IMG/VR virus record: IMGVR_UViG_3300020410_000062
Location: 1-24,040 of that record
Strand: one strand, 5' to 3'
DNA length: 24,040 nucleotides
Source: a virus
Lineage: Duplodnaviria; Caudoviricetes
Position numbers and translations under genes: made by a program. Position 1 is the first letter of the stretch; the number at the start of each line of letters is the position of its first letter. Below are positions 7,883 to 23,539 of this stretch, in pieces. The notes beneath the pieces were generated by a model. It had not been told where the DNA came from. It did no database searches and saw only the letters and a program-made list of their open reading frames with translations.

Positions 7883-8078
7883 TATTATATCTTTTAAAAT
7901 CTTTATAGATCCATCTGGAAACTTGATGAGTGAGTACTCAAAGTTTCCTAAAGAAGAAGTAGATAAGGTCTTCTACAAAGAAGATGTTGTATCTATAAAA
8001 AAGATTCTAAGAGAACTTGAGCCTAAGCTTGAGAACTTACACAAGTTTATAGAAGATGAATTAAACGCTCTTAGCTAA
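7869..8078 (+). CDS. Hypothetical protein, last gene of the + arm
   Basis: ATG at 7869 (TTG at 7866 also possible). Overlaps the upstream gene. Confidence 0.7.
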   Translation: MNEANIISFKIFIDPSGNLMSEYSKFPKEEVDKVFYKEDVVSIKKILRELEPKLENLHKFIEDELNALS

Positions 8079-9192: not shown

Positions 9193-9510
9193 CTATATGT
9201 AGTTAACCCAAGAAAAACTTTTTCTATTTTCTAAATAGTCTTTATCTTTTTCATTGGCGTAAGCTTCTTTTTCAAACGGAATAGACAAGTAAGCGTTTTC
9301 TCTTTTTACTAAGCCTTTTACCCAGAACAATACATATAGAACATAGAAAGGAACCACCCACAACTCCTGTTGTTGAGCTAAATGTATTTTTTCGTGAGTC
9401 ACCATGTCCGTATCATCTTTTAGTTCTGGAACTATAAAAGCGAAAGGCCATAAAGCTATTCCTTTTCTCCCGCCACTAAGGATTTTGGCAAATTTTGTAT
9501 AGATAACCAT
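9193..9510 (-). CDS. Small HExxH zincin-like protein
   Basis: GIALWPF..., HEKIH..QQ.E, hydrophobic helix, AY..IPFEKEAY. ATG 9510 follows an AGGA RBS and the upstream TAA, so it is preferred over 9543. Confidence 0.7.
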   Translation of the reverse strand: MVIYTKFAKILSGGRKGIALWPFAFIVPELKDDTDMVTHEKIHLAQQQELWVVPFYVLYVLFWVKGLVKRENAYLSIPFEKEAYANEKDKDYLENRKSFSWVNYI

Positions 9511-9511
9511 T

Positions 9512-9688
9512 TTATTCCTGCTCTTCCTCAATCTCTTTTTCAATAATTTTTATAATATCTTCAATGACAGCTATGTTAGTGTCTATCTGCTGTTTCTGAA
9601 GAAGATTATTTTTAAGCTCTGAGTTATAAACCTCTAACTCAGCTTCTTTACTTCTAGCGTGTCTGTAAGCATTTAAATTAATAATCAT
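9512..9688 (-). CDS. Small coiled-coil hypothetical protein
   Basis: ATG 9688 forms an ATGA overlap with the upstream gene. 58 aa with an acidic C-terminus. Confidence 0.65.
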   Translation of the reverse strand: MIINLNAYRHARSKEAELEVYNSELKNNLLQKQQIDTNIAVIEDIIKIIEKEIEEEQE

Positions 9689-10158
9689 TGTGACCAAAGG
9701 AAAAGAAACAATCCTGCCATACAGACTGCAAAAGCTATTAAACCCGCAGCAAAATAAGTTAAAACTTCTTTAATCATTTTATTTCTTTTTGCTTTAGCTC
9801 TCTTCAACTCAGCTATAGCCTTTTTATGTCTTTCTTTAGACTCCTCTACTCTTGTCATTATTTCAGTATACTGTGAGCCTTGACCACTCATTAATAAACT
9901 ATCTTTTAAAGCTCTGTTAAAGCTTTCGGCCTGACGCTTTGCAAGCTGTAGCTGCATAGATTGTTTCACATCCAGTATGCCTCCTTTGGCCGTCTCTACT
10001 TCTTGTATCCTCTGTTCTACATCTGAGTATTTACCTACTAGATTAGCCATATCAGAGGCATGACCGCCGGTTTCTTTTATGGTGGATAAAGCATCATTAA
10101 GAGATTTGAGAGTTGATATAACTGCTCCAATCGCTGCTGCTTCCCCGATGCCAAACAT
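9685..10158 (-). CDS. Coiled-coil protein with C-terminal transmembrane anchor
   Basis: C-terminal VLTYFAAGLIAFAVCMAGLFLFLW preceded by a basic helix. TAATG coupling to the endolysin. Confidence 0.75.
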   Translation of the reverse strand: MFGIGEAAAIGAVISTLKSLNDALSTIKETGGHASDMANLVGKYSDVEQRIQEVETAKGGILDVKQSMQLQLAKRQAESFNRALKDSLLMSGQGSQYTEIMTRVEESKERHKKAIAELKRAKAKRNKMIKEVLTYFAAGLIAFAVCMAGLFLFLWSQ

Positions 10159-10526
10159 TAGTAGCTCCAGACTCTAGGTCTGGGCCTTCCTGCTGCGTCT
10201 TCTAAAGTGTCAAGATGAATGAATCTGGAGGTTCCTGTCTGATTTACCCCAATGCCTGTGAAGTCCATCGCCAGAGACGCCTTCAGAAGCTCGTAGGCGT
10301 TAGTTCCACTACAGGTAATATCGAGGGCTTGCCCTGATGCATGTGCCCCTGGAGAGCTTTTACGGGCTTCTATGGGGTGGTCTGGGCAGCGGTAGGCAGA
10401 GCTTATAATAAATGGAAAGCCTACCTTCTCTCGTAGAGATTCAACACGCTGCATAAAGACTTGATTCATCCCGTCCTTGCCGCAATGTTGACAATGAAGC
10501 TCATCTACTGTAAAGTATTTATACAT
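10158..10526 (-). CDS. Peptidase M15 family endolysin
   Basis: YF..DELHC.HCG, ISSAYRCPDH, GAH..G.ALDI (H-x6-D) and FIHLD (third Zn ligand). Confidence 0.9.
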   Translation of the reverse strand: MYKYFTVDELHCQHCGKDGMNQVFMQRVESLREKVGFPFIISSAYRCPDHPIEARKSSPGAHASGQALDITCSGTNAYELLKASLAMDFTGIGVNQTGTSRFIHLDTLEDAAGRPRPRVWSY

Positions 10527-13500
10527 TTTGACTCCTTTTTAAAGCTTTTAAAACTTTACCACCTTCAACATAATTAACTGAATCAACATTTATATTTCTA
10601 GAATTAATTTCTATTACTTCATCAGTAGTTCGTCCTAAGATATTAGTTGCAACTCTTGCAATTGAGCTAAATCCTCCTTGAACAAATCCAAGTCTTCTCA
10701 GAGGGTCTTCTTCCGCAATACCTCCACCAAGAAATCCAAGTCTTCTTAAAGGATCTTCAACATCTACAAAAGCACCCCCAGCCTGTTGGTCATAAGGGAC
10801 ACCAGTCATTTTGTCTATACGTTCATCAGGCTCTTCAGCAGCTCTTTCAATATCTACTTCACCACCACCTTCATAATATAAACGTCCTATTTTTTTAGCA
10901 GTCGGTTCTCTTACTACTTCATCTTCAATAGGGTATCCTGCATAATCAAACACATCTAAAACTTCATCTCCAAAAGGAAGAGGTTTTAAAGCTTGCTTTG
11001 TAGCACCTTCAAAATCTCCTGTCCTAATGTTTCTAGATATAGAACCTTCAAAATCTCCTACAGGTGGAGCATAGCTTTTAAACATTTCAGTACCCCAACC
11101 TATAACAGGAACTAGGTTTTCTAACGGGTGCTGTCCACCATGACCAGAAGCAAGTCTAGCTATTTTATCTATCAACACATGGTTAAAATTACCACTGTGT
11201 TGAACACCTGCTCCAATGTTTTTCAAGGTTGCGTAAGCTTCTTTATATGAATCTTCATCTCTCTCTTCTAACCATTTTCCGCTAGGATCGTTTAAGAAAG
11301 ATTTAAAAGTAACAATTCCATCATATAAGGCTAAAGATCCTATCATTTTTACAAACAGTGCATCATCTCCGTCTTCCATACGACTAATAAGAGCATTTGT
11401 TTGTGATGTCTTTGCTTGTGCCCAGGATAAAAATTGAAATAAAGATTTTAAATAAGGATCGTTAGATTGAGACCATGCTCTACGATTAGAAAGCATAGGA
11501 AGAATAGCGTCTCTGTCTGCAGCCCTAGATCCTGCTAGATTTAAAATTCTTTTTCCGTCTACGTCCTGTAAAGCTTCATCAACATTTTTAAACTTTGTTA
11601 AAATATTAATACTCTCATCAGAAAGACCAGCAGCGTTTGCTTGGTTCTGTAGTGCTGTAGTTCTTTTTGTTGAAATTTTATTAGCTATTTCAAAAGCTCT
11701 TTCAATACCTGTGTTATAAGCATATCGCCTTGTAAAATTAGTAAAAGGAACTAGACCATTGTATTTAAAAAATGTCTGGTTCACATTAGTAGATAGCCTT
11801 TGCGCTGTAGAATTAGGGTTAGCAGTAGCTAGTCTGTATTGTCTTAACTCGTGAGAAGCCACATCTCTGTTAGAAAATCCTGTTACAGCGCCTATGTCCG
11901 TATCTTTATCTAAAGATCTTGCAAAACCTTTCATAGCGTTGTAGGCTCCGCTGTTCATAAAAGGCTGGGCAAGCTCTCCTAAACTGCTTATTACAACTTT
12001 AGGAAGATATGCAAGATTAGCTCCTGTTACCATAGTAGACATTACTGCATTAGACATTTGACTATTAGCAGCCCAACTAGATTTGTGAACAGTTCCAAAG
12101 TAAACTTCAACCATTTCATTTACGACATTCAAATGGTCGTCTCTCATTTTAACCAGTCTTAATCTTTCTTTTTCTGTTTTGGCTTTATTCATCCAGCCTC
12201 TAAAATCTGTTCTAATAGCATTTTTAAGAGATGTGATTCCTTCTCCATTAGCTCCAAATCTTCTAGCAAATTCTGCAATAGGTACAGTGCTACTAGTATA
12301 TTCTTTTAACAAGTGATCAATATCTGTCTGAAGAAATCCTTCATCCGCCAAAAGTTTTCTAGCTTCAAAAGATTTAAAAACTCTCTCTTTTTCAAAATGA
12401 GAAGTTAAAGGTCTCATTTTTTTATTGGCTATGTCAGAAAAAGCGGATAAAGGTGCTTTATCAGATCTTCCATAAGTAACCATGCTATCAAACCACTCGT
12501 CAATAACATTTAAATTTATTTTTCCAGGGTCTATTGTCTTTCCTACTGCTTCAGCATCTGCTATTTTTTCTAAAGTATAAGCTTCTCTATAAACTTCTCT
12601 GGCTTTTTCTGTAGTAGCCATTTTAAGTTTATCGTGCATTTGAGGTAAAACGTATTGAACTCTACCGTCTACAATATTAGGCTTCCAGTTCATACCTACT
12701 TTAGTAACTTCATCAGCAAGTTTATCTACTAAACTTTTACCAGCTTCTCCAAGTTTAACAACTTTATCTAATTCTGCATCGTCAAAAGAAAACTTAGATT
12801 TCAAGGTGTCTATATTTTCAAAACCTTCTTCAAGAAGAGTAGCAGCTTTTCTTATTTCTTCTGATCTTCCTCCACCTGCTACACCCAAATCTTCAATTAC
12901 CTTTAACCAAGAAAGATTAAGTTCTTGTTGTAGTAACTCAGATGCTTCTTCTACAGTATTTTTAGATGCTCCTTGCAAACCACTACCTACTTGCTGAAAT
13001 AAAGCTCTGCTTAAATCATGTACTCTTCCACCATAAGCTTGAGCTTTTGCAGCAGCACCGCCTGAGAAAAAAACATTGGCTTGCGCTCGTAAATTGTGAG
13101 ATAACACTTCTTTAATTGAGACTTCTGCAGCTTCTTTAACAGAAGGAACAAATTGACTCTCTACTATTTTTTTAGAAGCAAACCCACCAACAGCCCCTGC
13201 AACCATCCAAGGTACTGGATTAAAGTCTTCGTCACTATATAAACTATGAGCAGCACCCAAACCAAACCCAGCCATAGACCCCATTATAGGTCTATAAACG
13301 GCATGTCGTATAGTGTTTGCGTTTAAGTGTCCATTAACAGATAATTTACCAGCAATTCCAACAACATTATCTGAAATATCTTCAGCTTCATCTCTGATTA
13401 ACTTAGGAAGTTCTTGCCTTAAAAATTTAGTAGCTTCTTTTCTAGATTTTGTTAATCTTTTAAAATCATCATCTTTTAAAATTGTCTGTAGATCTTGAAG

Positions 13501-14370
13501 TTCTTTAAAAGCTCTGTCTTGATCTACAGTTAATGGACGAATAGAAAAGCTTTTTCTTAAATTTCTTTGTCTTCTGTGAAGCTCTACTATTTTTTTAGCT
13601 GCTGCTATTTTATATCCGTTACCAAAATTTCCAACTGTTTTTCCTATAGTGTCTGGAGCTTCATTATAAAAAGAAGATATAGAGCGTTCTAAAGCTTCTA
13701 GTTCAGTAGGTTCCAGGTCAGGAAGAGGATTATCTTTTACTTTAGAAGGTAAAGATTTTCCCTCAGTAGTCGTAATAGTTTTAAGAGGTTCATCTGACTT
13801 AGTTAGTTTTAAACTTTTAGGAAGGAATACAGCACCTCCTACCGCTCCCATACCTGCTGAAAGTCCTAATCCAAGAGGCTCTATTTCATTGCCTTTAGAA
13901 AGTTCTTTGATTGAATAGTCTCCAGCAGCTATGCTGCCCATTGTAGCTGCGCTTAAAAAGCGTCGAGCAGTGTTACTTAGCTGTGCCCCCTTTGCAGCAA
14001 CACCCGCACCTCCTGCAAGATACAAAGGCGCAGCAGTAGGATCAATCACATAAGATCCAATCTCACCTGCCAAAGCCCAGCCAGACTCTTTATCCGCTGC
14101 AGAAAGGTCACTATATTTTCTATCAAGCTCTCTAAGACGTTCTTTTTCTTTTTCTTTTAAAAGTTCTTCATCTCCTCCAGCAGCTATGTATCTAAAAGCA
14201 CTTGTACCTAGCCAGTCAGCTTTTCCGAATCCGTACTGAAGCTGTCTCATCTTAGAAGATTCATACTCTTCAGGAAGTTTTATTTGAGGCGTTTGATATT
14301 TCTTATCAGAAGATTGTTTAAGTAGTTCATCATAATATTTTTGTTCTTCTGGATTTAATATAATTGCCAT
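10519..14370 (-). CDS. Large putative internal virion/ejection protein (1283 aa)
   Basis: Long helical protein with several Gly/Ala-rich hydrophobic segments (LGLGLSAGMGAVGGAVFL, IMGSMAGFGLGAA, WMVAGAVGGFA). Last gene of the cassette before the lysis genes. AAGGA RBS. Function inferred from position and composition. Confidence 0.7.
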   Translation of the reverse strand: MAIILNPEEQKYYDELLKQSSDKKYQTPQIKLPEEYESSKMRQLQYGFGKADWLGTSAFRYIAAGGDEELLKEKEKERLRELDRKYSDLSAADKESGWALAGEIGSYVIDPTAAPLYLAGGAGVAAKGAQLSNTARRFLSAATMGSIAAGDYSIKELSKGNEIEPLGLGLSAGMGAVGGAVFLPKSLKLTKSDEPLKTITTTEGKSLPSKVKDNPLPDLEPTELEALERSISSFYNEAPDTIGKTVGNFGNGYKIAAAKKIVELHRRQRNLRKSFSIRPLTVDQDRAFKELQDLQTILKDDDFKRLTKSRKEATKFLRQELPKLIRDEAEDISDNVVGIAGKLSVNGHLNANTIRHAVYRPIMGSMAGFGLGAAHSLYSDEDFNPVPWMVAGAVGGFASKKIVESQFVPSVKEAAEVSIKEVLSHNLRAQANVFFSGGAAAKAQAYGGRVHDLSRALFQQVGSGLQGASKNTVEEASELLQQELNLSWLKVIEDLGVAGGGRSEEIRKAATLLEEGFENIDTLKSKFSFDDAELDKVVKLGEAGKSLVDKLADEVTKVGMNWKPNIVDGRVQYVLPQMHDKLKMATTEKAREVYREAYTLEKIADAEAVGKTIDPGKINLNVIDEWFDSMVTYGRSDKAPLSAFSDIANKKMRPLTSHFEKERVFKSFEARKLLADEGFLQTDIDHLLKEYTSSTVPIAEFARRFGANGEGITSLKNAIRTDFRGWMNKAKTEKERLRLVKMRDDHLNVVNEMVEVYFGTVHKSSWAANSQMSNAVMSTMVTGANLAYLPKVVISSLGELAQPFMNSGAYNAMKGFARSLDKDTDIGAVTGFSNRDVASHELRQYRLATANPNSTAQRLSTNVNQTFFKYNGLVPFTNFTRRYAYNTGIERAFEIANKISTKRTTALQNQANAAGLSDESINILTKFKNVDEALQDVDGKRILNLAGSRAADRDAILPMLSNRRAWSQSNDPYLKSLFQFLSWAQAKTSQTNALISRMEDGDDALFVKMIGSLALYDGIVTFKSFLNDPSGKWLEERDEDSYKEAYATLKNIGAGVQHSGNFNHVLIDKIARLASGHGGQHPLENLVPVIGWGTEMFKSYAPPVGDFEGSISRNIRTGDFEGATKQALKPLPFGDEVLDVFDYAGYPIEDEVVREPTAKKIGRLYYEGGGEVDIERAAEEPDERIDKMTGVPYDQQAGGAFVDVEDPLRRLGFLGGGIAEEDPLRRLGFVQGGFSSIARVATNILGRTTDEVIEINSRNINVDSVNYVEGGKVLKALKRSQNV
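10684..10758. repeat. Direct repeat, two 27-nt copies at a 48-nt period, encoding EDPLRRLGF twice
   Basis: 10684-10710 aaatccaagtcttctcagagggtcttc versus 10732-10758 aaatccaagtcttcttaaaggatcttc (24/27 identical, same peptide). Confidence 0.9.
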
Positions 14371-14383
14371 TATATTTCCTTAA

Positions 14384-17300
14384 TTAAAATATTCGTTGCG
14401 TGGCACTTTCTGAATTAAGCCTTCCAAAACTTTCAGGAGTTCTTGAGAGAAGACTTTGAGGAGAAGGTTCATAACCTACAGCTTTTAAATATCTGTCAAA
14501 AGTTCCTTTACCTGACTTAGTATTATAATATTTAAGATAATAATTTGCTCTTTGTCCTACACTATCGGGTATTTCCTCTGGTTTTGTTAAAAGATACAAT
14601 CTAGCAAAAAGAGCATTAACTCTGTCATCTTTTAAATCTTCGTACTTAATAGTATTCATATTCTTACCTATAGTATCTTTTAAAAACCCATTAATAACAC
14701 CTAAATGTTTTTTAAACTTTTTAAAAGAAGTTTTATCTCCAACAGCTCTATTCTTTATTTCATCAAAAGCTACTTCATCCATTTGAAATACACCTAAAGA
14801 TCCTCTTCCGGTATCTCCAGAATATATATCATATGTTCCTCTGTCTGTACCTTTATTACTTTCTACTGTAGCTATCTCATCTAAAAAAGTAACAAGATTT
14901 TCTTTTTGTTTATCATCAATAGGTATTAAATTAACCACCTCTCTTATTATATCATCTCCAGTTTCTACAAAAGAGTTAGCTGGGCCTTGAATCGGACCTA
15001 ACTCAGGTGAGCGTGAAGTAATCTGTTGTTCAGCCACAGGTCCAAAAGAATAATCGTCAGGATCAATATCTGCGGGTAGTGCTTTATCCCTTTCCAGAGG
15101 ACGCCTTAATTCAGGATCAAAAAGAGTTCCTGAAACTACAGATGGGGACTCTTCTTCAATAGACGGGGACTCTTCTTCAATTGAAAACTCTTCACCCATT
15201 ATAAATTCATAAGTTTTATTATTCTTAAATAAAACTTTATCACCAAAAGGTGAAACAACATCTGTATCAAGTCCCGGCAAATCTAACCTACTTAATTCTT
15301 TAGAAAGTTGTTTAAATACTGAATTATTTCTCATTTTTTGTGCGGGACTTTCCTCTTGATCTTCAGGAGGAGTAAAAAGATTTCTAGCTTTATGCTTTCT
15401 GGTAATTTTACTAGCTTCTGGATAGCTCATGCCTAATTTTTCTTCTAGATCTTTTATTACAAGTTGTCTAGATTGCATATCTGCTTTAATTATAGCCGCG
15501 TCTTCATCAGAAAACATTCCTAATACATTTTCTATATTATCCCAGTCTGCAGCAGCCCTACCTGCTACCTTATCTAATGTAAATCTAAAAGTTCCACTGT
15601 CATAAACAAGTGAAGAATCTTTAGAGGTCATAAGTGGAAGCTTAGGATTGGTAATTTCCCCACCAGCATCAAGAGTCTTCACATGACTAAGAGCAACTGC
15701 TTTAGATTGTCCATCTTTTACAGCCTTACTGATGGATTCATTAGTAAGAAATCTAGATGGTGGGTCTATGTCTAGATCTGTTTCTACTGTAATTATTCCT
15801 TCAGACACATCAGAAAAAGATTTTTCTAACTCTTCGCTGATTTGATACTCATTAAAATTAAACCCATTAGCTGCTCCGTACTGTGCTAAATCATCAGTAA
15901 GTAGAGTCAAGGCGCTTCTAGATTTTCCTACTTCAAATATCTGATAGTCCTCTAGAACATTTCCTAATCTTTGATTAACTTCAGCCCTAATTCTTGTAAC
16001 AATCTTGCCTCTTAAGTCTCCTTCCAGTTCTATTTTTTTGGCATCAGAAATAGAAATTCCCGGTTGTTGTTCTGCTTTTGAAATAAATACCTCAATGTGA
16101 CGGTCAAGTAAAGCTTGTTGCTTCCTAAGAGAACTTTCTGCAGAACTAGAAATTAAATCAGAACTAATTCTACTTACGTTATCTTCAGCAAGCTTTTTAA
16201 TAGCTTTACTAGTATAAAACCCATCTTGATCTCCAGAATTTATTTCTTTAACAAACTGATAAGAATTTTCTTCTGAGAAAAAAGGTAACAGTTTTTTAGC
16301 AAGCGGTAAATTTTCTTCTGAAATTACTGCAGAAAGACCTCCGGTTTTTATTTTGTTATAAGTTTCATAGTTCTTTATACTTCTAACTCTACTAGCAATC
16401 AATCCCTGACCATCTTTATTATTAATGTACTGACCAACAGAGGATTCAAAATTCTTGTAAGTAATTTTACCAGAGTCTATTCCTAATTTTAAAGCTCTTG
16501 TAGCTAGGGTGTCTAAATCCTTTGTTAATTCAGAATATGCTCCTTTTCCACCATCCATATAAATATTAAAATGCTCTTGTTGTGCTAGTTCTCGCTCTTC
16601 AAATGGCCTTCTCATTGCGTCCAGTCGCAGCCTTTCGGATTCGCTTTTTCTTAGGGCTACTTGACGTTGACGTTCTGATTCAGTAGCAGTCTCAACAATA
16701 TCTTCTAAACCTTGTTCTTTTAAATTATAATTTATTCCTCGCCGCGCCCTAGCAAGAGAGTCGTTATACTCTGTTCTATCTTGTAAAAAACTATAAAAAT
16801 TTGGTGCTGCCTCTGCTCTTGCTTTTGCTTTTAGATCAACTGGTTCATCAGAAAAAATACCCTTTACCTTTCGCAATAAAATTTGACCCGCATTCCCATG
16901 AAGTTTATTTTTTTCTAAAGCTTTTTCAATATCTTCAGAACTTCTAAATCTTCCTTTGCCAAAATCTTCAACAAATTTAATTGAATCGTCTACTAAAGTT
17001 ACACTATTTTCATCTATAGTACTTTGCATAGCTTCAAAAACAGAATTAATTTTTGCTCGTTGTTCTGGAGTGTAGCGTACAGCCGTTCTCCAATCGTTTC
17101 CGACAATTCTATTAAACTCATCATTAGAGCGTACTCGCTGAGTATGTCTAGCTGCGTCATAAATATTCATGCCGTTTTGAGCTGCTGTGTCATTCCAAGT
17201 ATCTATTGTTTTTTGAACTGCATCTACTTCTTTTTCTACGTTTCTTCTTTGCTGAATGATGCCGCCTCTTGCATTTTCTCTTTCTACAAAATCTTCATGC

Positions 17301-17485
17301 TTTTCTGCAAAAGGTTGTTTAATAAAATTTACTGCACCCTGAACTAAAGTTTCACCTATAGGCGAAAGAGCCATATACATTAATCTTTGTTTTAAATAAT
17401 CTTTTTCTCTTTCTTCACGTTCTTTTCTAACATTTCTATAATCTTGAGCGTATGCTTGCCCAATACCTTCTAAAAGATTAGCCAT
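14384..17485 (-). CDS. Putative internal virion protein with C-terminal lysozyme-like/lytic transglycosylase domain (1033 aa)
   Basis: C-terminal region has IATVES (candidate catalytic Glu), G.FQM, NALFARLYL and YY.KYYNT..GKGT, a lysozyme-fold pattern. GGAG RBS and TAATG coupling. Confidence 0.72.
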   Translation of the reverse strand: MANLLEGIGQAYAQDYRNVRKEREEREKDYLKQRLMYMALSPIGETLVQGAVNFIKQPFAEKHEDFVERENARGGIIQQRRNVEKEVDAVQKTIDTWNDTAAQNGMNIYDAARHTQRVRSNDEFNRIVGNDWRTAVRYTPEQRAKINSVFEAMQSTIDENSVTLVDDSIKFVEDFGKGRFRSSEDIEKALEKNKLHGNAGQILLRKVKGIFSDEPVDLKAKARAEAAPNFYSFLQDRTEYNDSLARARRGINYNLKEQGLEDIVETATESERQRQVALRKSESERLRLDAMRRPFEERELAQQEHFNIYMDGGKGAYSELTKDLDTLATRALKLGIDSGKITYKNFESSVGQYINNKDGQGLIASRVRSIKNYETYNKIKTGGLSAVISEENLPLAKKLLPFFSEENSYQFVKEINSGDQDGFYTSKAIKKLAEDNVSRISSDLISSSAESSLRKQQALLDRHIEVFISKAEQQPGISISDAKKIELEGDLRGKIVTRIRAEVNQRLGNVLEDYQIFEVGKSRSALTLLTDDLAQYGAANGFNFNEYQISEELEKSFSDVSEGIITVETDLDIDPPSRFLTNESISKAVKDGQSKAVALSHVKTLDAGGEITNPKLPLMTSKDSSLVYDSGTFRFTLDKVAGRAAADWDNIENVLGMFSDEDAAIIKADMQSRQLVIKDLEEKLGMSYPEASKITRKHKARNLFTPPEDQEESPAQKMRNNSVFKQLSKELSRLDLPGLDTDVVSPFGDKVLFKNNKTYEFIMGEEFSIEEESPSIEEESPSVVSGTLFDPELRRPLERDKALPADIDPDDYSFGPVAEQQITSRSPELGPIQGPANSFVETGDDIIREVVNLIPIDDKQKENLVTFLDEIATVESNKGTDRGTYDIYSGDTGRGSLGVFQMDEVAFDEIKNRAVGDKTSFKKFKKHLGVINGFLKDTIGKNMNTIKYEDLKDDRVNALFARLYLLTKPEEIPDSVGQRANYYLKYYNTKSGKGTFDRYLKAVGYEPSPQSLLSRTPESFGRLNSESATQRIF
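15140..15181. repeat. 21-bp tandem duplication (IEEESPS x2)
   Basis: agatggggactcttcttcaat / agacggggactcttcttcaat, 20/21 identical and in frame. Confidence 0.92.
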
Positions 17486-18003
17486 TATCTTGCTCCTAAT
17501 AATGATTCAGCACGCATTGGCTGATCGTCTTCTAACCGTTCTGTTACTCTGTCAGGAAATTCTTCTCCCGGCTCTGGTTCTTCTATAGTTCCTACAGCCT
17601 GTCCAAACATAGAAACATCTTCCTCGTCATCATCCTCATCATCTTGGATAACAAATTCAATCTGCGCTCTCTCTGCTAAAGCTGCTATCATGTAAGCTAA
17701 AGGCTCTGCTAAGATAAGCATCATGTCGGGATTAAAAAGACCTTCTTGAAATCCTTGGTAAAGAAAAGTCTTTACTAGATCCATGACTGCAACACCACTT
17801 TCTAAAGAGTCCATTAAAGGGTCATAGATTTCTTCAGATGTAAACAAATCAAAATAATATTCTAAGCCATCACTCTTAGTAACAATCTGAGGAGGACTTT
17901 CCCAAGGTCTAGGATCATCTGGACTAACCGTTAAAGATTCCCCCGGAATTGCTCCGTCTAGTGAAGTCCCTTCTTTAAAAAACATTTCATCTATTTCAGA
18001 CAT
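17485..18003 (-). CDS. Acidic putative virion-associated protein (172 aa)
   Basis: AIPGESLT..P..P.PWE.PP N-terminal motif, GLFNPDMMLILAEP helix and an acidic tail. TAATG-coupled on both sides. Confidence 0.75.
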   Translation of the reverse strand: MSEIDEMFFKEGTSLDGAIPGESLTVSPDDPRPWESPPQIVTKSDGLEYYFDLFTSEEIYDPLMDSLESGVAVMDLVKTFLYQGFQEGLFNPDMMLILAEPLAYMIAALAERAQIEFVIQDDEDDDEEDVSMFGQAVGTIEEPEPGEEFPDRVTERLEDDQPMRAESLLGAR

Positions 18004-19265
18004 TATGGTGTCAACCTTCTAGCTAGATTTTGTTCATATAGTCCGGGATTTAATACATGTTCCACAGGATTAAGAGGATACCCCGGAGAAGTGTCTAATA
18101 ATTTTCTTATCTCTAAAGCGTAGTTTTGTACTTGCGACTGTGGATTTAAAGACATAGCAGTTTGTTGAGCAACTAGTGGATTTGGTGAGTACATATTTCG
18201 TCCAGTCCAAGCTTGTTCATATTCTGGTTGATCTTGACCCATAGCACGTTGAAAACCCAGATTTACAGTTTGACCTACAACTGCTGTTTGCGCCTTATCC
18301 ATTATCCTGCTAGGACTAAGAAGACTTTTAAAAAATCCTTTGTCTTCAGTAGAACGGAAAAAATCTCCACTTTCATCTGCAATATCAAAAAGTTCTGGCT
18401 CAGAGTAAAGGGGGTCAGTACCTTCAAAACTTATATTTGCTTTTCCTGATTGAAAAGGTACTGCTTTATCATATTCTAATTTATGAGGAGTAAATTTATA
18501 CTCGCTTTTCGTTTTTACTGTTCTTGTGTCATATTCAACTGAACCAATATCATCTGGTTTGACAGAAGTCCACTCATCATCAACTTTGTATTGGTCTACT
18601 ACCTTAAATTTATCTTTTTTTATTGGATCAACATAACCACCTTTACCAGTATTAGGGTCGTAGGCCGCAGTAATTTTGTTACCGTCTTTCATTTCTATTA
18701 TTTCTCCCGCACTGTTTTTAACTCGCGGCATAGTACCATTAGCAATAGCTGTGTTTATATCTACCTTAGTAGCCTTAACACCTCTCCACTCAGCACCTGT
18801 GATACCCTGTTTAATTTTAGTCCAGTCTTTACTCATTCCTGATGTAAAAGTATGACCATCAAAAACATTACCACCTCCAAAAAAACGAGACATGCCGTTC
18901 ATGGCACTTTTTCCAAAGTTAGTTATTACTTTCGTAATACTTTCAAAAGGAGCTTTTACAAGGTTTACTGCTTGGATTCCTACACCCATAGTATGTCCCA
19001 AAGCTTTTGCAAACATGTTTGTACTTCCAGCTAAGTTTCCTGCTAACTGACTTAAAGAAGTAATCTTACTTAGTCCAAGCATACTTCCTAATCCATTAGC
19101 AAAAAGACTACCAATTCCTGGCAATATCATTGACATAGCTATCTGACCAAGCCATCCTATCTTGCCCATAAACTTACCAAATTTCTGGAAACCTTTTTTT
19201 ATACCTTTTCCGATTTTTTTAAAGGTCTTTTTTACACCTTTCCAAACTTTTGAAAAAAATCCCAT
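18003..19265 (-). CDS. Putative membrane-active pilot/ejection protein (420 aa)
   Basis: Cationic amphipathic N-terminus followed by Gly-rich hydrophobic helices. TAATG-coupled within the cassette. Confidence 0.65.
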   Translation of the reverse strand: MGFFSKVWKGVKKTFKKIGKGIKKGFQKFGKFMGKIGWLGQIAMSMILPGIGSLFANGLGSMLGLSKITSLSQLAGNLAGSTNMFAKALGHTMGVGIQAVNLVKAPFESITKVITNFGKSAMNGMSRFFGGGNVFDGHTFTSGMSKDWTKIKQGITGAEWRGVKATKVDINTAIANGTMPRVKNSAGEIIEMKDGNKITAAYDPNTGKGGYVDPIKKDKFKVVDQYKVDDEWTSVKPDDIGSVEYDTRTVKTKSEYKFTPHKLEYDKAVPFQSGKANISFEGTDPLYSEPELFDIADESGDFFRSTEDKGFFKSLLSPSRIMDKAQTAVVGQTVNLGFQRAMGQDQPEYEQAWTGRNMYSPNPLVAQQTAMSLNPQSQVQNYALEIRKLLDTSPGYPLNPVEHVLNPGLYEQNLARRLTP

Positions 19266-22200
19266 TATAGTGTTACTCCTGTTATCTCTTCCATTAACTT
19301 AAATAACTTAGTTCTTTTAAATTTAAACTCCACATTTGTCATAAAAGATTCACTTGCTAGTCCAGAATTAATTAATGCTACAATTCTTTCGTTCCTAGTT
19401 AATTCTCTTGTAAAGTCTCTATTTGACTGATCTCTTATTTCTTGCCACATCTGAGCCTGAGCAGCCGTACTCATTGCAAAAGAATTTTGAGCATTCTGAG
19501 CATTAACCGTATTTTGTGCTGCAGTATCTATTGTGTTGGCTTTTCTACGCCATTCAACATTAGATTGTTCAACTGCTTGAGCATTAGCAGCATTCCACTG
19601 TTCTCTTTGGAAATCTAATTTAGAGTTAAATTCTCTAGCAGCCGTTTCCATTTGAGCATTAAACTTACTAACATCTGTTTCGTTTTGTGCATTTATAGCT
19701 CTTGCTCTATTTTTTTCAGCAACATTAAACTGTTCCATAGCGTTTAGCTGAGTAACATTAAACTGTTGCATTTGTTGAGCCATATTAGCATTAAACTGAT
19801 TTACTTGATTTGCAGAAGTAGCATTGAACTGTCTTGAAGAATTTTCAGAAGCTTGATCAGATAGTATTCTTTGTTGACGAAGTTGCTGATCTAAAATAAT
19901 ACCTTGTTGAGCATTATTCAAATTAGCCATGTCCATCTGTAAGAAGTTTCTAGCATTTTGTATTGAAGCTTGAGTTTTTAAATCCGCAGCTTGCATATCC
20001 ATAGCCGCTAAAGATGCTGCATCTTGCATAATAGTTTGTTGTCTGTTATTTAAATCTGTAGCAGTCATAGTTTGTAAAAACTTACTATTGGCTAATTCAG
20101 TCTGCTGTTCAAAATTAAATTGTGTCATATCTAAATTAGCATTTACTTGAGCATTAAACATAGCTGCTGATTGTTCGTTACTTAAGTTAGCTAATCCCAT
20201 CTGTTGTGCAAGCTGTGCATTAACTTCCCCAGCCCTCATACGTTTCTCAAACATTTGTAACTGAGTTACGTTTTCAGCAGACATACTTTCAGAATCGGCT
20301 CTATTTTTAGAATCAAGATTTGCTAATTCTATTTTTTCTTGCATACTTAACTTAGCTAAATCTGCTCTCTGTTTTAACTCTTCGTTCATAGACATAACTT
20401 GAACATGAGTATTTAACTCTTGAAAACGAAATCTATTTTCTTCAGTAAAGTTTGCAGCATCAGTAGAAATTCTATCTTGAAGCTCAGCAAGTTCTATCTG
20501 TTGTTCGTTAGCTAAATTAGCAAGATCCATTTGCTGTGCAAACTGAGCATTAGTTTTCCTAAAATCTACTAACGTGTTTAAATTAGCAAGATCTGTCTGC
20601 TGCTCTGCTGTCATATTAGCTCTAGAAGTAGCGTTCTTTTCAGAAAGTTCTGAAAGCTCTACTTTTAATTTCGCATCGAGATTAACTTCTTCCATACGCT
20701 GATCAAGTTCAGCTTGTCTAACAGATCTTTGTATCTTAGCTGTTAATTCAGCAAGCTCAAATTGATTATCAGCAGTAAAGTTAGCTGAATCTGTAGCTAT
20801 TTTATCCTGTAGTTCTGCATACCTCATTTGCTGGTCATTGCTTAAATTAGCAAGTTCCATCTGTTGGGCTAACTGTACATTAGTCTTTTTAAAATCTACA
20901 AGAGTTTGAAAATTTGTAAGACGTTCTTGTTGTTCAGCAGTCATTCTATCTCTAGCTGCTAAATTTAAATTATTAAGGTCTATAGCTTCTATTTGTAATT
21001 CTGCACTAATATTAGCTTTTTCCATATCCTGCTCAAAATCAGCTTGACGCATAATTTTATTTATATCAGCATTATATTTAGCTAAACGGCCAGCAGACTC
21101 TGCATCCATGTCTTTAGCAGCTCTAAGACTTTCAGCTTTTAAGTTAGCTAAGTCCATCTGTGCATTTGCACTAAGTGTAGCAATAGCAGCCTGTTGTCTT
21201 TGACTAGATTCCTGAGAAGCCCTTTGTTGAGCAGCCTGGAAATTAGCCATTTCAGTTTGTTGAAGTTGTTCACCAGACAGTATTTTTGCCTGCTGATTAA
21301 ACTGTCCCTGCTGTACTTTAATCTGTTGAGCCATAGAAGCAGTTTGAGAAGCTGCAGTTTGTCTGTTAGCAAGATTCTGCATTCTTACTTGCATAGTATT
21401 CTGTGCAGAAGCTAAATTAGCCTGTTGTTCGTTGCTAAGATTTTGCTGTGCCCTTTGTTGTAGAGCTTGAGCGTTGCTCTGAGCCATTGGTAAAGCACTT
21501 TGAATAATTGCATTAAACAAAGCATCACGGCCTACAGAAGAAGCAGATAAGCCTCTACTAGCCATCATCTGTTCTACAGCAGCTACTGCCGGTCTTGCCC
21601 ATAAAGGCGTCTTACCTTCTTCCATACCAGCAAGAAGATTACTCATCTGTGTAGATACTAAAGCTTCTTCAGGAAGAGCCGCTACTGCTGCTATTACTTT
21701 AGGATCAGGATCAGTATCTAATTGAGCTGTTACTTTTGCAGGATCTTCTGAAATAGCTGCTGTAATTTCTTCAGGAAGGTCAGCTACAACTTCATTCATA
21801 ACTGCAGCACCGGCCATCCTTTCTCGGCCTTTAACAGCTTCCATTTGAGCAGCAGCAAAGGTAGGTATACCACCAATTTCTGCAGCAGTACCTACAGGAG
21901 GTTCACCTAATATTGCTTCTCGGCCTTCTAAATCTAAAGAAGGAGCCTCTCCTAGTTGTTTGGCTATTCTTTTAGCAGCTTCTTGAACCTGTTCTACCCT
22001 TGTAGCAGCTTTTTGAAATGCTGGGGTATCATCAATGTCAGTATTGCCACCCTGAGGTTGGTAATCAGCAGCGTAGTACTCGGCTGTAGCTTGATCAGTA
22101 ATCTGTGCAGCCGCATCTCCCATATCTTGAGCAATAGGAAGACCAGTCACAGGATCAATCCTAGTAGCAGCTTCACCTGTCTGTTCGGTTCTTGTTGCTA

Positions 22201-23539
22201 TCTGATTTTTATACTCAGGAAGATCTTCTAAAGCAACTCCACGCTCTTGAGCAAGATTAGTAAGTCTTGTAATAACTTCTGGAGATATGTCTCTACCAGT
22301 TCTGGTAGTTACAGTAGGCTCACTTATATCATCTGCAATCTCATAAGTTTCATCAGTAGTAACACCTTCAGCATATTCAGAAGTTATTTCAGGCTGTTTA
22401 TTGAGCCATTCTTCGTAAGCATCTCTTTGAGCGGGATTAGGCCACCACTGACCATCAGAAGATTGAGACATGACCGTAGGTGATATAACATTTTCACCCT
22501 TTTTAAATTCGGCACTTTTTAAAAATTTTTCTTTCTGTTCTTCAGGAGAAAGTTTTTTTCCTGGCCTTTCTACTGCAGTTGCTTTTGCAGCTTCTTCTTG
22601 TTCTGTGTCTCGTTGTGCAGCAGTAGTAGCAGTTACATCAGCAGAAGCGGCTGTAGGTTCTTTTGAAACAGTTCCAGTAGCACCAACAGTAGCAGCTAAA
22701 TCATCAGCTTTAGCAGCATCATAAGTTATAGCATCTACAGCTTTTGTAGTTTTAGGTGCTGATTTTGACCATTCTTCAAAAGATTTTTGTAAAGCTTCAT
22801 CAGCTCTGTCTTGATATTTTTCAAGTTGTTTTTTTAATTTAGCTTTATTTTTTGCATAATTAGCTAATCCAGATCTACCTAATCTTGATTTATTTTTATC
22901 ATAATCTTCTTTTAATTTTTTAAGTTTATCTTCGATACGTCCTACAGCTTCAGGTGTATGTTTTTCAACAGCTACTTGATACTCATCACTGGTTTTCCAA
23001 TTTTCTTGCATTTCTTCAGGAGTAAAAGGTCTACCTACACCTACAGCAGTTTCAGCTTTACCTTTTCTAGTTCTATAAGTAGAAGCTTTAGCATCTTCTG
23101 CACTAATATAATCAGAAGCTGCTATTTCTTCTATATCTTCTTTTTGAGTTATAGTAGAAGGATCTACACCAGTGTCTTTAACTAATTTAGAAGGATCTTG
23201 CCCAAATGTAGGGAAAGCTAAAGCTTCTCCTGTAGTTCTCTGCTGACCTAACTCTTTTGCAGCTTTAACTTCTGTTTCATCGTACAGAGGAGGAGCTTCT
23301 ATCGGAGGTTTTGTTCCACCATCCCCACCACCGTCATCCTGTCCTGATGGTTTTTTATTATGTACATGACCATTCGGGCCCACCCATATTATACCAGAAT
23401 CAGTTTCTATTGTTTCATGTGTACCGCCTTGATCAAAACCAACACGTCCACCAGACCTCAGATCTTGCCTGGGAATACCAGCACGCGCTCTAGATTTTTT
23501 AAAGCTTTTAGTATTTCTCCGAGATCTTTTCTTACTCAT
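19265..23539 (-). CDS. Large virion protein with acidic low-complexity N-half and Gln/Asn/Ala-rich hendecad-repeat C-half (1424 aa)
   Basis: AAGGA RBS and ATGA overlap. Basic N-terminus, an acidic Ala/Thr/Glu/Pro-rich region, then about 660 Pro-free residues in an 11-residue register. Confidence 0.8.
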   Translation of the reverse strand: MSKKRSRRNTKSFKKSRARAGIPRQDLRSGGRVGFDQGGTHETIETDSGIIWVGPNGHVHNKKPSGQDDGGGDGGTKPPIEAPPLYDETEVKAAKELGQQRTTGEALAFPTFGQDPSKLVKDTGVDPSTITQKEDIEEIAASDYISAEDAKASTYRTRKGKAETAVGVGRPFTPEEMQENWKTSDEYQVAVEKHTPEAVGRIEDKLKKLKEDYDKNKSRLGRSGLANYAKNKAKLKKQLEKYQDRADEALQKSFEEWSKSAPKTTKAVDAITYDAAKADDLAATVGATGTVSKEPTAASADVTATTAAQRDTEQEEAAKATAVERPGKKLSPEEQKEKFLKSAEFKKGENVISPTVMSQSSDGQWWPNPAQRDAYEEWLNKQPEITSEYAEGVTTDETYEIADDISEPTVTTRTGRDISPEVITRLTNLAQERGVALEDLPEYKNQIATRTEQTGEAATRIDPVTGLPIAQDMGDAAAQITDQATAEYYAADYQPQGGNTDIDDTPAFQKAATRVEQVQEAAKRIAKQLGEAPSLDLEGREAILGEPPVGTAAEIGGIPTFAAAQMEAVKGRERMAGAAVMNEVVADLPEEITAAISEDPAKVTAQLDTDPDPKVIAAVAALPEEALVSTQMSNLLAGMEEGKTPLWARPAVAAVEQMMASRGLSASSVGRDALFNAIIQSALPMAQSNAQALQQRAQQNLSNEQQANLASAQNTMQVRMQNLANRQTAASQTASMAQQIKVQQGQFNQQAKILSGEQLQQTEMANFQAAQQRASQESSQRQQAAIATLSANAQMDLANLKAESLRAAKDMDAESAGRLAKYNADINKIMRQADFEQDMEKANISAELQIEAIDLNNLNLAARDRMTAEQQERLTNFQTLVDFKKTNVQLAQQMELANLSNDQQMRYAELQDKIATDSANFTADNQFELAELTAKIQRSVRQAELDQRMEEVNLDAKLKVELSELSEKNATSRANMTAEQQTDLANLNTLVDFRKTNAQFAQQMDLANLANEQQIELAELQDRISTDAANFTEENRFRFQELNTHVQVMSMNEELKQRADLAKLSMQEKIELANLDSKNRADSESMSAENVTQLQMFEKRMRAGEVNAQLAQQMGLANLSNEQSAAMFNAQVNANLDMTQFNFEQQTELANSKFLQTMTATDLNNRQQTIMQDAASLAAMDMQAADLKTQASIQNARNFLQMDMANLNNAQQGIILDQQLRQQRILSDQASENSSRQFNATSANQVNQFNANMAQQMQQFNVTQLNAMEQFNVAEKNRARAINAQNETDVSKFNAQMETAAREFNSKLDFQREQWNAANAQAVEQSNVEWRRKANTIDTAAQNTVNAQNAQNSFAMSTAAQAQMWQEIRDQSNRDFTRELTRNERIVALINSGLASESFMTNVEFKFKRTKLFKLMEEITGVTL
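19481..21460 (-). repeat. About 60 tandem degenerate 11-aa (33-nt) repeats with a 110-aa (330-nt) super-repeat
   Basis: Manual parsing from residue 694 keeps register without indels. Equivalent QQ positions lie at 20201, 20531, 20861 and 21191, exactly 330 nt apart. Confidence 0.88.

Follow-up and report, generated by a model that had tools for sequence, protein, structure and literature searches.

A giant hendecad rod and its co-scaling tape in a family of tailed-phage proteins: a candidate ejected DNA conduit

Results

The window analyzed in this work is a stretch of 24,040 nucleotides from a tailed virus (Duplodnaviria; Caudoviricetes), corresponding to positions 1 to 24,040 of the IMG/VR record IMGVR_UViG_3300020410_000062. 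At 19265..23539, on the minus strand, it carries an open reading frame (ORF) for a 1424-aa protein. Its gene is the first of the large ones in a conserved cassette located after the genes for the tail fibres. This protein contains a very long rod of 11-residue repeats (hendecads) and, N-terminal to it, a non-helical segment here called the tape; all of its parts lie on the same strand. It begins with a basic and variable leader (approximately residues 1-113; 23201..23539) that has 13 Lys or Arg residues in its first 40 positions and a GGxV motif, followed by the A/T/E/D/P-rich tape (approximately residues 114-620; 21680..23200), which was delimited by the length coupling and covariation lines described below. 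Two tape insertions, one of 97 aa (residues 169-265; 22745..23035) that most relatives with 58 hendecads do not have and one of 58 aa (residues 329-386; 22382..22555), are predicted to loop out. A small conserved helical domain (approximately residues 621-693; 21461..21679) ends just past Pro684 and is the predicted turn of a hairpin; it has many invariant columns and forms helices in both AlphaFold2 (AF2) models obtained in this work. The rod itself (residues 694-1353; 19481..21460) has 60 repeats, which would measure about 92-98 nm as a straight helix, and includes at about hendecads 9-38 a region of 110-aa (2 x 55) super-repeats (20207..21196), where relatives gain or lose ten hendecads. 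The C-terminal ~70 aa (19265..19480) form a helical, amphipathic end without a transmembrane stretch, with a hydrophobic moment of 1.08 vs. a rod median of 0.55; none of 460 homologue tails reached KD19 >= 1.6 as a transmembrane tail.

The initial annotation, made from the letters alone, had described about 60 uninterrupted proline-free hendecads at 19481..21460, with Gln or Asn (Q/N) dominating positions 1, 2 and 7 and small or hydrophobic residues at position 8. Both statements hold. There are exactly 60 repeats, proline last occurs at residue 684 and six residues of the rod (<1%) are glycine; Q/N occurs in 37, 31 and 37 of the 60 hendecads at positions 1, 2 and 7, and position 8 holds a hydrophobic residue 35 times and Ala 16 times. 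Of the two periodicities that had been expected, that of 11 was recovered, the identity autocorrelation being 0.177, 0.207, 0.177, 0.203, 0.246 and 0.287 at lags of 11, 22, 33, 44, 55 and 110 (200 shuffles, 0.090 +/- 0.011), whereas the hydrophobic Fourier signal was weak at 3.67 and strongest at 2.2 and 2.75. This result points to two hydrophobic stripes (8/1/5 and 6/10/3) and not one. On an 11/3 wheel these hydrophobic or small stripes are centred at about 356 and 165 degrees, with a Gln-rich face (9/2) between them and an Asn-containing, charged face (7/11/4) opposite, the Asn7 side facing away from Gln2 and Gln9. At positions 2 and 9 of the window rod, 60 of 120 residues (50%) are Q/N/R and just three are hydrophobic. 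An apolipoprotein- or synuclein-type 11-mer helix that binds membranes was rejected as a candidate, since there are two hydrophobic stripes instead of one. The initial annotation had thus placed the rod correctly but overlooked the N-terminal half of the protein, with the tape, and the 55/110 super-repeats.

The register of the repeats was followed in homologues by the spacing between a conserved Pro (684) and a conserved Trp (1330), which are separated by 58 hendecads in the window protein; sequences lacking these anchors had been removed beforehand (24/246, 15/160 loci and 23/140 in successive sets). Among the unique two-anchor homologues this spacing equals 8 mod 11 in 462 of 463, over a range of 14-88 hendecads, so the comparison of repeat numbers that the initial annotation had proposed revealed wide variation with the register kept. 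The sole out-of-register sequence is P0308 (5 mod 11). Long forms cluster at 38, 48, 58, 68, 78 and 88 hendecads, that is, in steps of 110 residues, with insertions and deletions at about hendecads 19-32. At the DNA level the 330-nt repeats are the most alike (identity at a lag of 330 nt up to 0.71 over 150 nt), which suggests that unequal recombination may set the step size. Four homologues of 2463-3371 aa (P0276, P0277, P0278 and P0100) have very long N-terminal regions before the conserved part, and HMO-2011 gp25 (L004:13044-15164) has an additional C-terminal segment of ~70 aa, present in one of the 463 homologues.

Cultured phages carry shorter rods: 13 hendecads in phiM6, 15 in CHOED, 16 in MQM1 and Slicky01, 20 in HMO-2011 and 28 in HTVC103P. 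Among 12 further records, eight could be scored, giving 14 for HTVC033P and CRP-738, 20 for four CRP phages and 28 for HTVC104P and HTVC115P. As a straight helix, the 184-residue rod of MQM1 would measure 26-27 nm and forms of 14-16 hendecads 24-27 nm. A simple ruler of the host envelope, one of the roles first suggested for this protein, was rejected as unsupported: SAR11 phages have 14 or 28 hendecads, a two-fold difference that argues against it, and Roseobacter phages 14 or 20. The literature search yielded no usable source for SAR11 periplasm dimensions. Tail-fibre length is at most weakly related to hendecad count (rho 0.29, p 0.04; 50 loci, duplicates included).

The tape grows with the rod. 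In the classes of 38, 48, 58, 68, 78 and 88 hendecads, a conserved tape anchor lies about 188, 250, 306, 362, 415 and 469 residues before the Pro, with a slope of 0.518 tape residue per rod residue (confidence interval 0.509-0.527; n=137; rho 0.89), so that ~55 aa of tape are gained with each 110-aa rod module. The anchor could be scored in 135 of 230 class members: 116 differ by no more than 6 aa from the mode of their class, 19 have a longer tape, including the window protein with its two insertions, and none has a shorter one. Paired changes of rod and tape length were seen over at least 21 class changes in a tree of 123 sequences. Across long relatives, rod and tape co-scale at 2:1. The ratio of 110 to 55.5 corresponds to 2.8-3.0 A per tape residue beside a helix rising 1.4-1.5 A per residue, and such a rise is that of an extended chain.

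Covariation between tape and rod was analyzed in five alignments, taking the 40 strongest couplings of each and 1000 block-permuted nulls; an initial covariation for the 38, 48 and 58 classes was discarded, as rare-variant artefacts dominated it. In the 21-hendecad class, 25 of the 40 couplings fall on an antiparallel line of slope 1.7 (null maximum 19; best parallel line 11), in the 47-88 classes 16 of 40 with a slope of 2.1 (null maximum 13; best parallel 7) and, with sequences pooled and the anchor placed at the far end, 21 of 40 with a slope of 1.9 (null maximum 13; best parallel 8); in each of these three alignments, 0/1000 nulls matched the observed count. Taken together, the length coupling and this antiparallel covariation near 2:1 suggest that the protein is a giant hairpin of an alpha-helical rod and its own extended tape, an architecture that we regard as highly probable. 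Our search of the accessible literature returned no account of the rod family, of a hendecad rod or of a co-scaling tape. Of the 62 tape-rod contacts on these lines, 45 involve rod positions 3/7/11/10/4, three involve positions 2/9 and four position 6. It is therefore likely that Asn7 holds an outer tape instead of lining a lumen, and this residue probably faces outside and binds the tape, so the inward Q/N expected in the initial annotation would not include it. In armadillo repeats, Asn residues bind a chain through hydrogen bonds to its backbone, and Asn7 may perhaps act similarly.

Within the rod, covariation was computed from 440 sequences (effective number, Meff, 223) over the C-terminal 187 columns. 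The mean coupling peaks at i+3 (2.7) and i+4 (2.8) and is weak at i+11 (0.55), which indicates an alpha-helix and not a beta-solenoid and, together with the AF2 models, agrees with the helical rod first proposed. Long-range couplings displayed no fold-back pattern in these columns, the 110-aa repeat region being too shallow for this analysis. Residues at i+2 lie on opposite faces of a helix. Couplings at i+2 are nevertheless strong where the stripes join (5.6 for positions 10-1, 4.0 for 1-3, 3.0 for 8-10 and 2.1 for 6-8, vs. 0.5-1.4 for the rest), and side-chain volumes anti-correlate between positions 6 and 8 (-0.46) and 10 and 8 (-0.39), with repeat ancestry uncontrolled in these values. From such sequence patterns we infer the helix, the antiparallel outer tape and a two-sided packing, in which parallel, in-register helices would pack flank to opposite flank, as in a ring. 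The oligomeric helical barrel that the initial annotation had suggested is consistent with this covariation of opposite flanks.

Two AF2 models were obtained, neither of which contains strands. That of residues 560-1424, which excludes most of the tape, is all-helical, with a predicted local distance difference test score (pLDDT) of 62 and a predicted template modelling score (pTM) of 0.30. That of a 21-hendecad homologue with its tape contains helices that are 107, 52 and 112 residues long, with the tape predicted, at low confidence, as mostly coil (pLDDT 63, pTM 0.28). PHROGs, Pfam and NCBIfam gave no family match for the rod protein and a PDB sequence search no match for the rod. With the weak AF2 model, Foldseek found nothing in PDB at E <= 0.001 and, in BFVD, just uncharacterised or unnamed entries at that threshold; VIA wide returned generic helical hairpins (Z <= 9.9). 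The ESM Atlas gave unnamed viral clusters only.

The rod protein matches 22 cultured-phage records, of the HTVC103P and HMO-2011 types and including Slicky01, MQM1, phiM6 and CHOED. HTVC103P gp59, HMO-2011 gp25, MQM1_018, CHOED_013, phiM6_25 and the Slicky01 protein, all annotated as hypothetical, are true homologues that share its anchors, register and cassette, differing in having 13-28 hendecads vs. 58 between the same anchors. In the window, the plus strand encodes a family A DNA polymerase, nearest to that of HTVC103P (49%), a B12-dependent reductase and ThyX, and the minus strand the structural arm. The replication (plus) and structural/lysis (minus) arms converge at 8071-8078, where the GC skew also changes sign. 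A contig that matches the window over 14,773 bp at 99.99% identity and ends inside the nozzle gene contains portal, coat, adaptor and nozzle genes homologous to the phiM6 portal and to HMO-2011 gp47, gp45 and gp44, the last being tubular tail B (PMC4819975); the cassette lies downstream of these and of the fibre genes. HTVC103P is a podovirus among phages with capsids of 55-69 nm (bioRxiv 2019.12.14.876532), and MQM1 has a capsid of 70.6 nm and a tail of 9.2 nm (PMC10410586). This short tail occurs alongside a 184-residue rod, so tail length does not follow the rod gene.

In six cultured phages the rod gene is followed in the cassette by a variable gene (missing from HMO-2011), another encoding ~175 aa and then a pair of large genes. 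The window genes, all on the minus strand, follow this order. The 420-aa product of 18003..19265, with a basic, glycine-rich and partly hydrophobic N-terminus, is represented by homologues at 68 of 97 loci as well as in HTVC103P and Slicky01, and is a candidate membrane-inserting partner. The 172-aa product of 17485..18003, with a central hydrophobic stretch, is the best-conserved partner (89 of 97 loci and all six cultured phages). The 1033-aa product of 14384..17485 ends in a domain that resembles lysozyme/SLT (phrog_3108 at residues 844-1003), a lead with Atlas scores of 0.84-0.88, under 0.9, and sequence homologues of this gene were found in just 2 of 97 loci. The last gene of the cassette (10519..14370; 1283 aa) has homologues in 42 of 97 loci and in HTVC103P gp52 (E 1e-40), has a GGxV near its C-terminus and, by its size and position, would be comparable to T7 gp16/IVP-D. 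Beyond the cassette lie genes for a peptidase M15 endolysin and a small protease-like protein (10158-10526 and 9193-9543, minus strand).

Within the first 80 aa, the GGxV motif was found in 55 of 113 rod homologues vs. 72 of 479 other ORFs, and in the leader it is possibly a packaging or processing signal. In the window it is found at 23440-23470 and 10519-10900 (both minus strand), and it lies near the C-terminus in 66 of 136 ORFs of more than 1100 aa; the rod protein and these large ORFs possibly share a packaging or cleavage signal. Short modules similar to the two tape insertions are repeated several times in the close relatives P0002, P0003 and P0009, and the insertions are possibly mobile decorations on the exterior of a tube. 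Four contigs from metagenome-assembled genomes (L022-L025; Sphingobacteriales, Mycobacterium, Maricaulis and Acidiferrobacteraceae) were rejected as indicators of the host, as they are spread over four classes in three phyla and probably represent phage contigs binned in error.

Discussion

The findings obtained in this work lead us to favour, with moderate confidence, a role for the rod protein as an ejected hollow DNA conduit: an internal virion protein whose self-splinted hairpin would build a barrel of ~10-12 copies across the host envelope. In this proposal, the rod protein would belong to the ejection (internal virion) proteins of a short-tailed phage. Its chain would fold as a giant hairpin, with the 60-hendecad helical rod carrying its own tape, antiparallel, on the outer positions 3/7/11/10/4. 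Rods would pack in parallel through stripes 8/1/5 and 6/10/3, the Gln-rich positions 2/9 pointing inward, and by analogy with known conduits some 10-12 copies may form a hollow barrel. Analogy also suggests that the protein may be packaged as unassembled or folded-back monomers and ejected via the nozzle, that DNA would then pass through the barrel, and that the neighbouring 420- and 172-aa proteins may anchor the tube in a membrane. As a tube of 92-98 nm exceeds the 55-71 nm capsids of cultured relatives, a straight rod cannot be pre-formed inside; twelve copies would occupy less than 3% of the interior of a 56-nm capsid. Surplus tube length may simply be tolerated, as it reportedly is in lengthened forms of the phiX174 pilot protein H. 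The opposite-flank coupling and a residue pattern like that of H favour a many-chain barrel with a Gln-rich lumen.

Several observations weigh against this reading. The tape anchor stays at 184-190 residues between the 27-28 and 37-38 classes, which a helical-looking insert near the turn of the shorter classes may account for. In the shallower alignments of the 36-38 and 27-28 classes, the on-line count (6 of 40) equals chance even after filtering, and a line set beforehand in the pooled test captured 4 of 40 couplings (3.1 expected, p 0.38), the peak being 15-20 residues off. Positions 3 and 10 may be hydrophobic only for tape binding, which would weaken the argument from two seams, and the predicted lumen positions 2/9 are only 50% Q/N/R vs. 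18 of 23 inward positions in H (PMC7354561). Rod length does not follow host genus. Both AF2 models are weak and neither displays a lumen or a chain number; the tape-poor one folds the repeat region into 55-residue hairpins (pLDDT 75-87), and these hairpins may reflect the true fold, a compact form of the packaged protein or an artefact that arises from satisfying inter-chain signal among the repeats. The homologues of CRP-738 (L114:597-3011) and CRP-235 (L116:483-3017; a tblastn match) end in Peptidase_S74, typical of trimeric fibres, and our literature search found no virion proteomics for the rod family.

These last homologues bear on an alternative that we consider unlikely, in which the same rod-tape hairpin forms a narrow, lumenless coiled-coil fibre or needle of two to four chains, serving as a plug, probe or guide for ejection proteins. 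Positions 5/8/9/1 correspond to the canonical hendecad core a/d/e/h, the tape can account for hydrophobic positions 3 and 10, and Peptidase_S74 ends two cultured homologues; however, Pfam detects no such domain in the window protein and a motif search of the 463 scored homologues revealed nothing S74-like. The i+2 coupling of opposite flanks and the size anti-correlations at 6-8 and 10-8 require each helix to have a neighbour on either side, position 6 makes only 4 of the 62 tape contacts in spite of its small or hydrophobic character (60%), and H, a decamer, has the same residue pattern.

It is also possible, and we judge it improbable, that the protein forms a conduit with helices kinked at Asn7-Leu8-Ser/Thr9, oblique or folded, so that a few chains would make a tube of 20-30 nm and the figure of 100 nm would be wrong. 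The AF2 hairpins break mostly at positions 4-9, the breaks at positions 6-9 following a rhythm of 2,3,2,3 hendecads that fits the 55/110 repeats, the Asn7-Leu8-Ser/Thr9 motif resembles a helix cap, and differences of 10-30 hendecads between close relatives are awkward for an envelope width. Nevertheless, no fold-back couplings were seen in the C-terminal 187 columns, whole-hendecad insertions and deletions prevail in 462 of 463 homologues, a similar N-L-S-x-Q-Q stretch lies within the helical tube of H, and the AF2 model of the short homologue with its tape passes through most such motifs. Straight helices of 14-16 hendecads are, moreover, already 24-27 nm long.

Even less probable, in our opinion, is a structural filament that remains within the capsid or infected cell without being ejected, as a core spindle, a DNA spool or a scaffold for assembly. 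The absence of a transmembrane stretch and the free length variation among sister phages would suit such a filament, but if straight its 92-145 nm would be too long for capsids of 55-71 nm, and the cassette occupies the usual place of podophage internal virion genes. The LysM peptidoglycan-binding domain at the N-terminus of the CRP-235 homologue favours a cell-wall location, which is also indicated, as a lead, by the lysozyme-like neighbour; a gene annotated as 'cell wall hydrolase' adjoins the CRP-603 homologue.

Finally, an ordinary tape-measure protein of a long tail, the case that the initial annotation had set against its own proposal, or a beta-solenoid with 11-residue rungs, is very improbable: for the former there are only weak Foldseek matches to tape-measure proteins (E >= 2e-3, TM ~0.09), set against cultured relatives that are short-tailed podophages and a near-identical genome with adaptor and nozzle genes like HMO-2011 gp45 and gp44, while for the latter the period of 2.2 and the i+2 couplings would also suit alternating strand faces, but the couplings are highest at i+3/i+4 and low at i+11 (0.55), glycine is below 1%, the AF2 models have no strands and an extended 2:1 tape cannot track rungs of 4.8 A.

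If the conduit proposal is correct, a bolder version of it can be entertained, which we hold as tentative and rather doubtful: an abundant group of ocean podophages may eject a single-gene, two-layer telescoping tail, in which a ring of uninterrupted hendecad helices, each held by its own tape, would assemble outside the capsid into a straight channel of 60-145 nm. This channel would be longer than the capsid and 3-5 times the length of the solved podophage conduits compared here, and it would be built in 16-nm modules of 110+55 residues, which would extend it across a capsule, an S-layer or a swollen periplasm. Should the long forms be straight, podophage conduits would not be limited to ~30 nm. 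The present analysis gives a candidate conduit and a testable architecture to DNA-delivery genes annotated as hypothetical and, since cultured members with 13-28 hendecads exist, tube length can be measured directly against repeat number. The repeated joint change of rod and tape length records a structural constraint in the sequences with unusual clarity, and a helical nanotube that is modular and self-splinted would interest protein designers.

Previous studies of phage conduits provide the basis for comparison. The tube of phiX174 H is a decamer with a length of 170 A, a width of 22-25 A and a lumen lined by amides, N/Q/R occupying 18 of 23 inward positions (PMC7354561). The likeness to H suggested in the initial annotation stands as regards pattern, since residues 151-183 of H score 16.0 bits on the family hendecad profile in one register, a value reached by 0/5000 shuffles and 25/5000 column permutations, vs. 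a median of 20.8 for the 33-mers of the window itself (10th-90th percentile 12.0-26.8). No homology to H was detected by hhalign (probability 0.3, E 0.23), and there was no Pfam or PDB match. Gln occupies the equivalents of positions 2 and 9 in both proteins, which also share an 11/3 hendecad helix with a Gln face between two packing stripes, the inward residues of H being deduced. On the other hand, H has three hendecads followed by 11 heptads where the window rod has 60 hendecads, it carries K/E/G at the Asn7 position, and the accessible text on H describes no tape (PMC7354561). H belongs to a tailless single-stranded DNA microvirus, whereas the window rod comes from a double-stranded DNA tailed phage, with a family A polymerase in the window and portal, adaptor and nozzle genes in the near-identical genome. 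On current evidence the rod protein is likely H-like in its working, by analogy, and outside the H family. In one study of a microvirus no pronounced periplasmic tunnel was observed (PMC11195240), which cautions that tubes of pilot proteins may not be seen in situ in every case.

The closest precedent for the tape is found in T7, in which residues 157-228 of gp16 form an extended 'molecular tape' that cements the ejected helical tunnel of gp15 (PMC8954989). That tape has 72 residues and belongs to a second protein, in a hexamer ~200 A tall, whereas here a tape of ~350 residues belongs to the same chain and scales with the rod. The cassette also resembles that of T7 in its order from small to large genes after the tail genes and perhaps in a cell-wall hydrolase domain, and its largely helical products are encoded downstream of nozzle and fibre genes, as for podophage internal virion proteins. 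No sequence or, with the weak model, fold match was found to T7 gp14-16, P22 gp7/20/16 or the N4/DEV ejection proteins. Ejection proteins of this kind diverge beyond recognition (PMC4819975), and Table 2 of that study does not list IVP-D for HMO-2011. Known or proposed alpha-helical trans-envelope tubes are likewise formed by DEV gp72:gp73, a nonamer ~300 A long with a lumen of 25-35 A (PMC11445570), by P22 gp20/Sf6 gp12 (PMC8954989) and by crAss001 gp45/gp46 (PMC10172136), none of which gave a sequence match or, with the weak model, a specific fold match. The accessible parts of these reports describe neither hendecad arrays nor a co-scaling tape, and the length predicted here is 3-5 times greater. 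Helical ejection tubes are thus already known as a kind; what is new here is the tape of the same chain that co-scales with its rod.

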